Below, piece by piece: positions 23,834 to 28,997 of a stretch of DNA of 64,000 nt. The stretch's first letter is position 1. The number at the start of each line of letters is the position of its first letter. Source of the DNA: Candidatus Moraniibacteriota bacterium. GTDB lineage: Bacteria > Patescibacteriota > Minisyncoccia > Moranbacterales > UBA1568. The DNA lies in the NCBI GenBank assembly GCA_963743885.1, contig CAVURJ010000002.1, forward strand, positions 109,020 to 173,019, written 5' to 3'. The notes under the pieces are model-generated. The model did not search any database and had not been told where the DNA came from. It saw only the letters and a list, made by a program, of their open reading frames with translations. Both the position numbers and the translations under genes were made by a program.

Positions 23834-26453
23834 GGATATTACGAGCCAAAAAGACGTATGACATACGGATTTCTCGGCTCATACAGATACTGCATGAACA
23901 TCAACCGGACAATCTAAACGTCAGCGTATTGTGAAGAGATGATAGTCTCTCCGCGAGGAGAGATTTTCATTTCCGCATAAGCGCCTTAACAATTCATGTC
24001 TTTTCTGAGATGGTCATGTTTCGCCTGGCAGCGGAAAGCGAACGGGTTATCTTGGAATAGTCTAAATGATGTAAGGTCAAGCTCATGAGATCTTCGCAGA
24101 TCTCATGAACAAGCAATTCAACCGATAGTGCAGTATGCTGTTGCGCGGACTGATGCGGACTGGAACGGACTGATGCGGAATTTCTGCATAGGTCTGTGTA
24201 AAGTCAGTATTGGTCAGCACATTGAGCGTTCTTCACTGTCAACCGATTGTCCGTGAGTACTTTCATCATAGCGTCGCAAGACGCCGTGATGGAATATTTG
24301 CGGACAATGGAATCAAGAAGGTTACTTAACGCATGGTGTGGATGCCTTGACTGAAGCAAGCGATGAAGGACGTAGGAGGCTGCGATAAGCCTCGGGGAGC
24401 TGTCAAGCAAGCTTTGATCCGGGGATTTCCGAATGGGATAACCCTTCCGATCTTCATGACGGAAAACCGTATCTGAATACATAGGGTACCGAAGCAAACC
24501 CTGGGAATTGAAACATCTTAGTACCAGGAGGAAAAGAAATCAATAGAGATTCCGTAAGTAGTGGCGAGCGAACGCGGAACAGCCTAAACCACCGAGCTTG
24601 CTCGAGTGGGGTTGCAGGGCTTGTGGACTCGATTGATCGGGGTCACTGCAGTGTTGCTAGCAGAACGTTCTGGAAAGAACGACCATAGAGGGTAATAGTC
24701 CCGTATGCGAAAACGATACTGCACTGATGCACAAGTACCTAAGTAGGGCGGGACCGGAGAAATCCCGTTTGAATCTGGGAGCACTAACTTCCAAGGCTAA
24801 ATATTGCTTCAGATCGATAGTGAACTAGTACCGTGAGGGAAAGGTGAAAAGCATCCCGATAAGGGAGGTGAAATAGATCTGAAACCCTATGCTAACAAAG
24901 AGTCGGAGCCGTCGCATCACACTGCGTGTGATGCTAAATTCAAAATGCAAATTTCAAAAAATGTAAAACTTTGGTTCTTGCTGAGCAAGTCGGACAATTT
25001 ATACTGAATAATCTAAAAATCCGTAAGCGTAGCGAACATAATAATTTTGATTTTTGATTTTTAAATTTTGATTTTAGCGAACATCACGCATAGCGTGATG
25101 CGAGCGGTGACGGCGTGCTTTTTGCAGAACGATCCAACGAGTTAGTTCTACGCGGCTGTCTAAGGGATGACGAATTCCGGAGACATAGTGAAAGCGAGCC
25201 TGAATAGGGCGAATATGGTCGCGTGGACTAGACCCGAAGCCAGGCGAGCTACATATGAGCAGGGTGAAGCGCGGGTAAAACCACGAGGAGGCCCGAACCC
25301 ACTCAGCCGTGCAACACTAGGGGATGACTTGTGAGTAGGGGAGAAATTCCAATCGAGCTTGGCAATAGCTGGTTCTCTCCGAAATAGCTTGAGGGCTAGC
25401 GTCTTGTAAATTATACCCGAGAGGTAGAGCTACTGGATGAGAATTCGCGGTTCGCCGTAGGCTTTTCAACCAAACTCCGAATACTCGAGGTACGTATCCA
25501 AGGCAGTCAGTACTCCGGGGCTAAGCTCGGAGCACAAAAGGGAAACAGCCCAGATCGTCAGTCTAAGGTCCCTAAATCTATGTTAAGTGGGAAAGGAAGT
25601 GAAGTTTCTTAGACACCTAGGAGGTTGGCTTAGAAGCAGCCATCCTTTAAAGAGTGCGTAACAGCTCACTAGTCTAGAGACTTCGCGCCGAAAATGTAAC
25701 GGGGCTAAACATAGTACCGAAGCTACGGATTTTATCGCAAGATAAAGTGGTAGGAGAGCGTTCCGTATGCGCTGAAGCGGAAGGGTGACCAACCGTGGAG
25801 CGTATGGAAGTGAGAATGTTGGAATGAGTAACCGCAATGAGGGTGAGAGCCCCTCACACCGAAAGTCTAAGGTTTCCTGGGCAATGGTGATCATCCCAGG
25901 GTTAGTCGGTCCTAAGGCGAGGCCGAAAGGCGTAGTCGATGGACATCAGGTTAATATTCCTGAACTATTTGTATATTCGATGGAGAGACGCATCTCTGTA
26001 TCTCTTGCCCCTTATTGGATTGGGGTATGCGTATTGAGGACGTTGTACAGGCAAATCCGCACAGACATAGTCCAATGGATGGTTGGACGACGTCTGTAGC
26101 AATACCGGCGAAGAACGAAGTGGAGCAGGGTGCCAGGAAAATCTTCTAAGGTTAGTATACAGATATCCGTACCGCAAACCGACACAGGTGGACTGGGCGA
26201 GTAGCCTAAGGTGAACGGGAGAGCCTTCGTTAAGGAACTCGGCAAAAAAGCTAGGCGTAAGTTCGCAATATGCCTTGCCATCCGCAAGGGTGGCCGCAGC
26301 GAAAGTTTCCCAAGCGACTGTTTACCAAAAACACAGCTCTCTGCAAACCCGTAAGGGGAAGTATAGGGGGTGACACCTGACCAGTGCTGGAACGTTAACG
26401 GGAGCGGTGCACGCCAATCCCCGAAGCGCCAGTGAACGTCGGCGATAACTATA

Positions 26454-27247
26454 GAACGATTGTAGTTATAAAATTTGGCCAAATGCTGGAAACTCCGAAT
26501 GAACCGATATGTACTCGCCTGAAATAAATGGCAGTGAAAATCAGTATCAGTGAGAGTATCGCGGGATACGAGTCGGACAATCAGCAGGAAAGACTCTTAT
26601 GCAAGATGACCAATGGTTGAAACAAGATTCCACCTGAAGTGGGCCACTATTTAGCTGGTTTCGCAGATGGGGAAGGAAGTTTCATAGTCAGTTTACGACA
26701 GCGACCGTGATCATACACTTGGTTGGCAAGTCGTCCTCACTTTCAATGTAGCTCAAAAGGAGAGCTATATCCTTTCGCAATTCAAAAGATATTTGGGTTG
26801 TGGAAGACTACAAGAAAGGAAAGATGGCGTGTTCTACTACGTGTGTGCCAATCCGCAATCGATTCAGGAGAAAGTAATTCCTTTTTTCAAGCGATGTCGA
26901 ATTTCGATCGCAGAGAAAAAAGAAAAATTTCGCTGTTTTCTGTCGTATTGTAGAGAAAGTTTTCAACAAAGAGCATCTGACTGGAAGCCGGGCTGAATGA
27001 AATCATCAGGTTACGTGAAGAGCTCAATGACGGTCGGGGACGCAGGCGAAAGTTTGCGCTCACTGATTATGAAAACTTTCAAAAAGAGAATCCTCAGAGA
27101 CTATACGCCAAACCACGGGCCTTCCGGAAGGAAAGCCATGCTGGATGATATAGTCCGATCTCATGGGTAACTATGAGTTTGATCTCCTGCTATCAATAGA
27201 GATCGAAAAGGTAAAGAAGCGAATTCTTTCTGAACACAGGTGCACGA
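26454..27247 (+). mobile_element. Group I intron inserted in 23S rRNA (E. coli position about 1917 region) carrying a LAGLIDADG homing-endonuclease ORF
   Basis: About 790-nt insertion between the conserved 'AACTATA' and 'TCGTCCTAAGGTAGCGAAATTCC'. Contains the HE ORF. Confidence 0.7.
26639..26996 (+). pseudogene. LAGLIDADG (I-CreI-like) homing endonuclease, interrupted by a 1-nt frameshift at about 26708
   Basis: 'YLAGFADGEGSFIVSLRQRP*' then in the +1 frame 'DHTLGWQVVLTFNVAQKESYILSQFKRYLGCGRLQERKDGVFYYVCANPQSIQEKVIPFFK...', which is collinear with I-CreI (LAGFVDGDGSIIAQIKP...LSLTFQVTQK...). Possible GTG start at 26639. Confidence 0.7.
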
Positions 27248-28018
27248 ATCGTCCTAAGGTAGCGAAATTCCTTGGCAGGTAAGTTCTGACCCGCATCAAA
27301 GGCGTAACGACTTGAAAACTGTCTCAACGAAGAGCTCGGTGAAATTGCAATGACGGTAAAGATGCCGTCGACCTGCAGCAAGACGAAAAGACCCCGTGGA
27401 GCTTTACTACAACTTGGTATTGACTTTGAGTTTTTGTTGCCGAGCATAGGTGGGAGACTTTGAAGCGCCGCTTTGGTCGGGTGGAGTCATCAGTGTAATA
27501 CCACCCTGTATGATTTTAAACGCTAACCCTGGACTGTTATGAGTAACGAAACTTATACGAACCAGCAAATGCAATATGATCAGTTATTCTGATTGTATTC
27601 TGCGCGCTCATAAATTTCTCGAGTTTCATACCAGTCCGGGGACAGTGCCTGGCGGGTAGTTTGACTGGGGCGGTCGCCTCCTAAATGGCAACGGAGGCGT
27701 TTACAAAGGTTGGCTAGGTCCGGATGGAAATCGGACCGATAGTGCAAAAGCATAAGCCAGCTTTACTGAGAGACCCATCAGTCGATCAGTTACGAAAGTA
27801 GAATTTAGTGAACCGACCATCGCTTATAGGAGCGTGGAAGATCATCAGATAAAAGTTACCCCGGGGATAACAGGCTGATCCCTCCCAAGAGTCCACATCG
27901 ACGGAGGGGTTTGGCACCTCGATGTCGGCTCATCGCATCCTGGGGCTGGAGAAGGTCCCAAGGGTTTGGCTGTTCGCCAATTAAAGCGGTACGCGAGCTG
28001 GGTTCAAACCGTACAGTA

Positions 28019-28490
28019 GTTATAAAGTGAAAAGTTGAAGGTTTTTAAAGTGTATTCTTGCTTTAGAGACTTGATAACTTGACGGACTTTTGACTCTTGT
28101 ACAGTTTGAACCCCGAGGTGGTTTGCGACATCAAATGGGTTTTTCGTCTTTGAAAAAGTCCTGACATAACAGTCAGGTCCCGACTATCATCATGTTGGGA
28201 ATAGATAACCAATCACATCACGGCGGTACTTTCTTTGTAGAAAGTAACAAGCTGACTTATATCGGTGGAGCCCTTCACGAAACGAAGGGTCATACCGAGG
28301 GAAGAAGATGGTTGAAAGTTTTTAAAGTTCATAAAGTTGAAAGTAAATACGAATTCGTGTTCACTTGATAAACTTTTTAACTTTATACTTGATAAACTAA
28401 ATTCGCCTGTAGAGACTAAACGTCAGCAGTCTTCTGAGCAATCAGGAGATGAAGCTATAGTCCAATGCACTTGGTAACAAGTGGTAACAT
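28019..28490 (+). other. About 470-nt ORF-less insertion in 23S rRNA domain V (E. coli about 2590s), candidate second intron
   Basis: It interrupts the conserved 'GCGAGCTGGGTTCAAAC...GCGTGAGACAGGTTGGTTTCCTATCTGC', is AT-rich, and starts with a local hairpin (GGTTCAAACCGTACAG...CTGTACAGTTTGAACC). Confidence 0.4.
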
Positions 28491-28997
28491 GCGTGAGACA
28501 GGTTGGTTTCCTATCTGCTGTGGGCGTGTGTGGCTTGAGAGAACTCTTCCTTAGTACGAGAGGACCGGGAAGAACGAACCTCTGGTGTATCTGCTGTTCC
28601 GCCAGGAGCATCGCAGAGTGGCTATGTTCGGGCAGGATAACCGCTGAAAGCATCTAAGCGGGAAGCCGAGCTCAAGATAAGGCCATACCCCTCACTTGAT
28701 TTGCGTAGCATTCATATGCAAGCGATCAGTGAGCTCTTCTCTCGAAATCAGAGAGTGGATAACTGGTGATTCGTGGTAACCATGTAGGTTATAACGCAAA
28801 TCAAGTGAGGGGGAATTTCCTAGAAGATGACTAGGTTGATAGGCTACAGGTGGAAGCGTGGCGACATGTTAAGCCAAGTAGTACTAATAAATTCAAACGA
28901 CTTTCTTCGTTCCAGTACGGTTGGCAGTGAAGAATGCTTGAAAAGGGGAGACAGTATATCATTTCAGAGGACAAAGACAATTTTGGAGAGGAGTGTT

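Follow-up and report, generated by a model that had tools for sequence, protein, structure and literature searches.

A 64,000-nucleotide (nt) stretch of DNA from a Candidatus Moraniibacteriota bacterium (contig CAVURJ010000002.1 of assembly GCA_963743885.1, positions 109,020 to 173,019; hereafter the window) contains a 23S ribosomal RNA (rRNA) gene at 24315..28909 of the forward strand, on which all features below lie unless stated. We read this locus as the 23S-5S operon of a Moranbacteria-like bacterium of the candidate phyla radiation (CPR; Patescibacteria), which would be transcribed from its own promoter and apart from the 16S gene. Its 23S gene is enlarged by two group I introns and three hairpins, and one intron carries a homing-endonuclease gene whose frame is broken in a manner unlike that of a decayed gene; we give this explanation as a whole a probability of about 0.85. 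The Rfam model of bacterial large-subunit (LSU) rRNA, RF02541, matches over model positions 1-2925 with 2276 bits, in keeping with the ~4.6 kb at 24315-28915 reported by a first-pass annotation that was made from the letters of the window. At 4,595 nt the gene exceeds the 2,925-position model by ~1.67 kb. Collinear blastn alignment with E. coli rrlH and with the 23S genes of two close relatives resolves this excess into five insertions, and the two introns separate exons at 24315-26452, 27247-28012 and 28492-28909.

The first intron comprises 794 nt (26453..27246) and follows U1917 in E. coli numbering; alignment to rrlH places it between positions 1917 and 1918, where an insertion of ~790 nt had been noted in the first pass. 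Judged by its conserved elements, this L1917 insertion is a genuine group I intron. It has no P2, a complex P5 and an open reading frame (ORF) in L6, and its elements run in the order P1, P3, P4, P5 (with a branched extension), P6 (with the ORF), P7, P3', P8, P7', P9, P9.1 and P9.2. P1 (26445-26452/26462-26469) has 8 bp, AUAACUAU paired with GUAGUUAU, and the last exon base, U26452, wobbles with G26462. The 3' exon begins with six bases that complement the six just 5' of this guide, giving P10 (ACGAUU/AAUCGU; 26456-26461/27247-27252), and the intron ends in the omegaG, G27246. The P3-P9 core contains a P3/P7 pseudoknot and R and S elements (CAGAGACUAUAC and GAUAUAGUCC, respectively), with helices P3 (26474-26479/27107-27112), P4 (26484-26489/26581-26586), P5 (26494-26498/26573-26577), P7 (27099-27104/27150-27155), P8 (27113-27144) and P9 (27160-27166/27171-27177).

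Covariation was assessed in 30 distinct L1917 introns, drawn from the 80 GTDB species genomes with the best relatives of the intron protein. Across this set, pairing in P1, P10, P3, P4, P5 and P9 reaches 97-100%, and 7-15 double-sided changes are seen per position. In P3, 179 of 180 cells are paired and two positions each show 13 double-sided changes; in P9, all 210 are paired and five positions show 7-15 such changes. Covariation is also seen in P4 and P5, and P7 does not vary. The splice-site U.G wobble is kept in every one of the 30 introns, and P10 tracks the exon variants AAUCGU, AACGGU, AAUUGU and AACCGU, with 8-10 double-sided changes at two positions. Within the exons, helix 69 is maintained by changes relative to E. 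coli that compensate each other at the junction (C1909G with G1921C, G1910A with C1920U), which thereby fix the junction to the base. An initial model with the ORF in L8 and UCGGAC/GUCCGA as P7 was ruled out, as UUUGGC/GCCAAA (P3) and GACUAU/AUAGUC (P7) agree with the R/S consensus and P3 is backed by covariation; UCGGA forms the 3' strand of P5. By the exon-motif boundaries used, several related L1917 introns end in A and not in G (L009, L011, L014, L015, L048 and L057; such three-digit labels denote loci retrieved from relatives). A Coxiella intron is likewise said to be devoid of the omegaG. In the predicted reaction, the guide (ACGAUU followed directly by GUAGUUAU) would pair with the 3' exon through P10 and with the 5' exon through P1 and its splice-site U.G, the pre-23S RNA would lose both group I introns by two-step, guanosine-initiated self-splicing, and ligation at L1917 would rebuild helix 69.

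The L1917 intron encodes a single-domain LAGLIDADG_1 homing-endonuclease frame (26599..27148) with the motif LAGFADGEGSF, its acidic residue included, at ~26651-26683, as the first pass had recognized. In the sequence as given, a stop lies 12 codons past the ATG at 26599. Removal of exactly four bases yields an uninterrupted ORF of 181 codons that ends with TGA at 27146-27148, its 3' end overlapping P6', P7, P3' and P8. Pfam and homologue searches employed a first, hand-repaired draft of 170 aa. PF00961 (LAGLIDADG_1) matches this draft with 65.2 bits (cut-off 23.1) and spans positions 1-101 of the 102-position profile. The same draft retrieved 2,173 homologues, mostly from CPR bacteria, of which the best is 87% identical and the named ones belong to Moranbacteria, Parcubacteria and Uhrbacteria. 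Relatives are encoded in at least 573 GTDB species genomes; among the best 80, most titles name Patescibacteria groups and nearly all have the exon motif TAACTAT ~150-190 nt upstream, so that the relatives' elements also reside at L1917. Two further frame anomalies had been considered for this gene. A fifth frame change near the C-terminus (..SSETIRQ) was dismissed since intact homologues show the frame running on as ENPQRLYAKPRAFRKESHAG, and a TGA ahead of the LAGLIDADG motif need not be a recoded codon, as the first frameshift accounts for it.

Against solved structures in the PDB, the repaired protein is closest to the domains of I-SmaMI and I-OnuI (E 5e-40 overall, each I-SmaMI half scoring 68-71 bits), followed by 3e54 (E 4e-14), I-MsoI (2e-11) and an I-CreI derivative (3e-9). 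Of the label 'I-CreI-like' that the enzyme had been given, the one-domain architecture therefore stands, whereas membership in the I-CreI subfamily, whose closest members would be I-CreI, I-MsoI and I-CvuI and whose target is L2593, does not; the intron at the true I-CreI site is the second one, described below. The one-domain protein would cut intron-less 23S alleles and thereby spread the intron; its predicted target is GGCGAUAACUAU joined to AAUCGUCCUAAGG (also given as GGCGATAACTAT joined to AATCGTCCTAAGG). I-ShaI, a CPR relative from a different site, has been shown to be active (Tsurumaki et al. 2024, PMC11270868).

The first-pass annotation had called this gene decayed on the strength of a single frameshift at ~26708. 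The extra T at 26708 is indeed present, but it is one of four: three-frame translation and DNA alignment reveal an extra G at 26626, the T at 26708, an extra G at 26896 and an extra T at 26982, each of which shifts the frame by +1. All four are unique to the window in comparison with 6 to 11 relatives. Yet the description as decayed, taken as an evolutionary statement, does not hold. Compared with 24 homologues, the repaired ORF retains all 48 invariant and all 31 nearly invariant residues; its dN/dS against intact relatives is 0.075-0.105, compared with 0.067-0.131 for pairs of intact genes, and the gene is intact in 10 of 11 close relatives. By these measures of its sequence, the L1917 gene shows zero signal of evolutionary decay; decay is unsupported because drift long enough for four indels should also have brought many damaging substitutions, and none is present.

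The insertions themselves have an unusual character. Set against 6 to 11 distinct relatives of 80-89% identity, the intron of the window shows 6-7 one-base insertions of its own and zero unique deletions, whereas each relative has 0-2. Among nine inserted bases examined across the locus, eight match neither neighbour; they are non-templated and not products of repeat slippage. Three of the four ORF insertions adjoin a synonymous third-codon base and can be read as both alleles retained. The exons are affected as well: in the stretch 25200-25700, two isolated one-base insertions are unique to the window, and 48 of 49 other CPR 23S genes have zero of this kind. One of these, the T at 25562, falls between CAG and CUAAGGUCCC within a conserved rRNA motif and converts CAGCUAAGGUCCC to CAGUCUAAGGUCCC; the length of CAGCUAAGGUCCC is fixed in every relative that bears the motif, and the position of the insertion is G or U in relatives. 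A search of JGI metagenomes for the T-inserted 3' end of the intron found 0 contigs, compared with 10 for the uninserted form and 3 with a different extra base. None of the ~55 protein genes in the window is interrupted, and those shared with L003 agree within 30 aa in length. Confinement of the insertions to the rRNA operon suggests a local consensus problem. Over the operon as a whole, ten unique one-base insertions were counted (25304, 25497, 25562, 26526, 26544, 26626, 26708, 26896, 26982 and 27241), with zero unique deletions.

The competing interpretation, that of the first pass, takes the four frameshifts as real and the L1917 endonuclease gene as a dead pseudogene in the degeneration phase of the homing cycle, when the endonuclease has no further use because the intron has become fixed in its population. 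The extra bases do stand in the sequence as given, the frameshift-free flanking genes indicate an assembly that is generally accurate, and a frameshift also breaks the copy in L084, an independent Logan contig. In the neighbouring L2593 intron the ORF is gone altogether, and ORF-less and ORF-bearing group I introns are equally common in CPR 23S genes (222 and 211, respectively; PMC11270868). Moreover, all seven insertions in the intron lie outside the core helices P1-P9, as predicted if selection acts on splicing alone. What this interpretation does not accommodate is the missing relaxation of selection (dN/dS of 0.075-0.105, 79 of 79 conserved residues retained), the ratio of seven insertions to zero deletions with eight of nine inserted bases non-templated, the outlying number of one-base insertions in conserved rRNA, such as the T after CAG, and the 0 to 10 ratio of 3' ends in JGI metagenomes. 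We therefore leave a dead pseudogene a sizeable minority share of the probability and lean, by a modest measure, towards breaks that are consensus or assembly errors, or else extremely recent events in a single population, as opposed to an evolutionarily decayed gene. An apparently 'decayed' intron gene can thus be a local consensus problem, and pseudogene calls in mobile elements of co-occurring populations are unsafe unless accompanied by a selection test and a check of the reads. The copy in L084 (679-1071; Logan SRR28401824) belongs to an 89%-identical L1917 intron and has one frameshift, which cuts its ORF at 130 aa.

Further large insertions had been noted by the first pass and are present, although it did not recognize that one of them is a second group I intron. 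This intron is ORF-less, spans 479 nt (28013..28491) and follows E. coli U2593, the I-CreI site. The insertion is exactly absent from L002, L003 and ~30 other CPR 23S genes, whereas in ~20 others this bond is interrupted by 268-840 nt whose last base is always G. Its guide, UCACG followed by GCGGU (28218-28227), pairs with CGUGA of the 3' exon (P10, 28218-28222/28492-28496) and with ACCGU of the 5' exon (P1, 28008-28012/28223-28227), with a U.G at the splice site; for splicing, it would thus hold both exons at helix 93. The motif CACG-GCGG recurs in L2593 introns of 268-840 nt, at 26-207 nt from the splice site. An alternative guide, GUGGUUUG (28117-28124), offers an 8-bp exon pairing but is not conserved in L005, whereas CACG-GCGG is conserved throughout the family. 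Downstream of the guide, P2 (28228-28234/28239-28245), P3 (28251-28256/28422-28427), P4 (28262-28266/28294-28298), P5 (28271-28276/28284-28289), P7 (28414-28418/28458-28462), P8 (28430-28437/28442-28449, GCAA loop) and P9 (28468-28473/28478-28483, GUAA loop) are all complementary, and the intron ends in the omegaG at 28491. It thus has the U.G, the omegaG, P10, a P3-P9 core and the R and S elements of a group I intron, and an unconstrained minimum-free-energy fold recovers P2, P4, P5, P8 and P9.

A homologous L2593 intron of 840 nt occurs in the Moranbacteria relatives L004 and L005 and in five JGI contigs. There, L6 holds an intact ORF of 143 aa (MKLSPTQRAYIAGFLDGDGS...), with matches to both I-CreI (E 4e-18) and I-MsoI (E 1e-26). 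In the window, alignment with L005, an inverted repeat and the predicted fold identify, in place of this I-CreI-type ORF, an AT-rich imperfect palindrome of ~100 nt (28299..28408). From this comparison, the window's L2593 intron has lost an I-CreI-type gene that close relatives keep, and without an ORF it would be immobile.

L1 of the L2593 intron contains a segment, GUUUGAACCC (28104..28113), that complements the 5'-exon bases 28000-28009, immediately 5' of P1, over 10 bp, a match found in 0 of 500 shuffles. Similar segments of 7-11 nt lie in L1, upstream of the guide, in the L2593 introns of L004, L005, L015, L025, L028, L029, L038, L048, L052, L062, L068 and L075, and they covary with three variants of the exon (..UUCAAAC.., ..UUCAGAC.. 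and ..UUUAGAC..). These matches raise the tentative and, in our estimate, rather unlikely proposal that CPR L2593 introns may recognize their 5' exon by two segments, the GCGGU guide in P1 and a clamp in L1. Such a clamp crosses P1 topologically and could stack on it to give ~15 bp of exon binding. If true, it could hold the exon, delay the folding of helix 93 or sharpen the choice of targets in reverse splicing; if confirmed, it would be a small new element of group I intron architecture. A narrow literature search found no description of a 5'-exon clamp in L2593 introns.

The three remaining insertions are hairpins at the tips of H25, H79 and H98 (named by the standard E. coli numbering). 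The H25 hairpin (~24911..25105, between E. coli positions 540 and 611) adds ~190 nt with an AT-rich interior and a long, near-perfect closing stem; it folds with -77.4 kcal/mol (z -6.2) into stems of 25 bp or more and is a candidate intervening sequence (IVS). Around H79 (~27529..27637, between positions 2136 and 2223), ~88-90 extra nt replace the native hairpin (fold z -4.6), compared with 19 nt at this site in L003. The H98 hairpin (~28684..28814) adds ~106 nt, where L003 has 25 nt, and has a perfect closing stem of 19 bp (-62.7 kcal/mol, z -6.2). All three thus combine a helix-tip location with the long double-stranded stem of an IVS. The H25 insertion is absent from L002 and L003 and partly homologous in L005. 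L005 bears both the H25 and the H79 insertions, whereas all three are missing from L002 and L003, which have other insertions at about E. coli positions 1170 and 1952. Even within Moranbacteria, the sets of 23S insertions are mosaic (L002, 8697-9136 and 10687-10973; L003, 6738-7212; L005, ten insertions). Searched by blastn against the window and every locus, the H79 and H98 hairpins gave no match. A TTTTGA-type repeat tract in the H25 interior (~25041-25075) gave short blastn matches to 23S insertions that lie at various sites in about ten other CPR genomes, perhaps owing to low complexity only.

The hairpins would either be kept as expansion segments or be cut by a double-strand-specific RNase, like classical IVSs. 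Excision at all three without religation, which would leave the 23S rRNA in up to four pieces, is in our view a serious possibility that falls somewhat short of even odds. It agrees with the long near-perfect closing stems (19 bp at H98, 25 bp or more at H25; z -4.6 to -6.2), with patchy presence among close relatives and with the location of H25, a classical IVS site where short CPR insertions have been so interpreted (PMC11270868). It is less easily reconciled with H79 and H98, which are not known as classical IVS sites, and no RNase III gene was seen among the genes of the window, which covers just 64 kb.

Several points weigh against our overall explanation. Neither intron attains the gathering score of 50 bits for the Rfam group I model RF00028. 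L1917 yields partial scores of 26.5 and 20.9 bits because the 490-nt ORF in L6 splits the model alignment; both partial matches place the helices identically to the covariation model. L2593 scores 45.7 bits (E 1.5e-10), with P1-P2 misplaced and P4-P6 skipped because of its large L1 and L6 loops. P6 is short and shows no covariation in either intron. We infer the splicing of both introns, and likewise the fate of the hairpins, from DNA and not from RNA. With respect to the broken L1917 gene, the ~55 intact flanking genes restrict any error process to the rRNA locus, and the route that we envisage, in which reads from several populations sharing a mobile intron were merged into one consensus, is speculative. 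Finally, there is a precedent for an unspliced 23S group I intron in Simkania negevensis, to judge from the title cited as reference 28 of PMC11270868.

By that precedent, the insertions might persist as expansion segments of the mature 23S rRNA, with the introns unspliced. For the three hairpins, which are self-contained stems at helix tips, retention is entirely possible. Both introns, however, keep all catalytic elements, namely exon-matched guides, the U.G, the omegaG, the P3-P7 core and a GNRA-capped P9, and these are held by compensatory change across dozens of lineages. Furthermore, helix 69 and helix 93 are located next to the peptidyl-transferase centre, and 479-794 extra nt that break them there would be hard to tolerate. 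We accordingly regard general retention as very improbable and favour removal of both introns by self-splicing. The exact boundaries of introns and hairpins allow correct trimming of the 23S sequence for phylogeny and ribosome modelling of this lineage.

The surroundings of the 23S gene agree with an operon that is separate from 16S. A 5S rRNA gene follows at 28998..29105 (Rfam RF00001, 79 bits), and just 3' of it a terminator-like hairpin, AGCCTGAACAAGGCT with a run of T, was read from the sequence at 29132..29155; the scan placed this hairpin on the minus strand. The small-subunit (SSU) rRNA model has zero matches in the entire 64-kb window, that is, over 24 kb upstream and 35 kb downstream of the 23S gene, and besides 23S and 5S the window's RNA genes amount to six tRNAs far downstream. 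The gene 5' of the 23S is a protein-coding one, a TPR membrane protein (20916-23627), and a strong terminator with a 13-bp stem lies behind it at 23644-23672. A sigma-70-type promoter, TTGACA-17-TAAGAT (23805..23833; 10 of 12 consensus matches), precedes the 23S-5S operon, and both its hexamers are invariant in four relatives, among them the Moranbacteria L003, L005 and L007. Between promoter and gene lies a long leader of ~480 nt (23834..24314) with blocks conserved in four Moranbacteria relatives: a hairpin at 23944-23965, GCGCCTTAACAATTC (23981-23995), which we take to resemble the boxA of E. coli rrn leaders, CAGCGGAAAGCG and ATAGTCTAAA. An Rfam scan of the 480-nt leader returned chance-level matches only and no known RNA family. 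The Moranbacteria assembly GCA_016182385.1 has the same order as the window: TPR, 23S, 5S, hypothetical protein, FtsW/RodA, SecG, SBP, PGI, NTP-transferase, tRNA-Leu and RNase J. The closest relatives are Candidatus Moranbacteria with this shared gene order, which bears out the first-pass assignment to CPR bacteria.

Metagenomic rRNA loci are often mis-assembled, and the missing 16S could in principle reflect a linked operon that was joined wrongly. This we find scarcely credible, as the 13-bp-stem terminator closes the upstream gene, the promoter and 480-nt leader that precede the 23S are conserved in four relatives, the upstream TPR gene and the downstream order recur in an independent NCBI assembly, and no SSU gene stands beside the 23S in L002 or L003, whose loci were both scanned in full. 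Owing to the upstream terminator, the operon's own promoter, the conserved leader, the shared synteny and the absence of an SSU match from 64 kb, the 16S gene is, on this genomic evidence, truly unlinked from 23S-5S in the source lineage, as the first pass had proposed.

Elsewhere in the window, 8144-13155 encodes a Ribonuc_L-PSP-domain protein, a nitroreductase-family protein, a YcaO cyclodehydratase and unannotated ORFs, and resembles a thiazole/oxazole-type peptide-modification locus. A cluster of tRNAs for Ala(TGC), Ile(GAT), Met, Met and Asp occupies 59990-62013 with no rRNA gene nearby; Ala and Ile tRNAs are the usual rRNA-spacer tRNAs. A T4SS-pilin (TrbC/VirB2-like) gene (60193-60813) lies between tRNA-Ala and tRNA-Ile, and an ORF at 62346-63410 joins an N-terminal PAS domain to sigma-70 regions 2 and 4.

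The components of the locus can be compared with known systems. In the L1917 introns of Synechococcus sp. C9 and Thermotoga subterranea the insertion site is the same as in the window. An architecture without P2, with a complex P5 and with an ORF extending from P6 through P7, P3 and P8 has been published (Haugen et al. 2007, PMC1995217) and is shared with the Synechococcus C9 intron, whose ORF of 181 aa equals the repaired ORF of the window. The comparison rests on the published description, and there are differences: Synechococcus belongs to a different phylum, its intron has 743 nt compared with 794 nt, its ORF ends in P9 whereas that of the window ends in J8/7 just before P7', and the window's ORF is broken as given. 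Among enzymes of solved structure, the best matches to the L1917 protein are the I-SmaMI/I-OnuI family and the one-domain archaeal rRNA-intron enzyme 3e54; I-OnuI-family enzymes are two-domain monomers of fungal mitochondria, whereas the one-domain protein of the window would act as a homodimer. The second intron shares its L2593 site with the Chlamydomonas chloroplast intron Cr.LSU (I-CreI) and with I-MsoI, but the window's copy has no ORF and a very large L1 of ~200 nt. It also has a lone P8 hairpin between P3' and P7', without the P7.1/P7.2 extension described for cyanobacterial L2593 introns. The guide and putative clamp loosely resemble the pair of exon-binding sites in group II introns. 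With the IVSs of 23S helices 25 and 45 in Salmonella, Leptospira, Coxiella and others, the H25 insertion shares the hairpin at the tip of helix 25, the long stem and the patchy distribution; the positions of the H79 and H98 hairpins are not known as classical sites, and an IVS-protein ORF is absent.

The closest parallels come from CPR bacteria themselves. In a survey of 348 CPR 23S genes, insertions were found in 82% of the genes, and group I introns make up 45% of all insertions; LAGLIDADG_1 genes cluster at positions 1917, 1931, 1952, 2593, 2604 and 2657, ORF-less versions occur at those same sites, and short insertions are found at IVS sites (Tsurumaki et al. 2024, J Bacteriol, PMC11270868). 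The window shares with that survey the positions 23IS6 (1917), 23IS12 (2593) and 23IS2 (the IVS site), the phylum-level group, the group-I-like structure, a single-domain LAGLIDADG_1 ORF at 1917/2593, ORF-less variants and short non-intron insertions at IVS sites. It differs in no respect of kind, although its ORF at 1917 is frameshifted and it has extra hairpins at H79 and H98; its ORF-less 479-nt L2593 variant was not seen among the relatives that we retrieved. Patescibacteria are also named among the clades with unlinked rRNA genes (Brewer et al., bioRxiv 10.1101/705046), and the window, in which 23S-5S likewise stands apart from 16S, shows zero differences from that arrangement. Taken together, every component of this locus falls inside the published description of CPR rRNA genes and their introns (Tsurumaki 2024; Haugen 2007; Brewer 2019).

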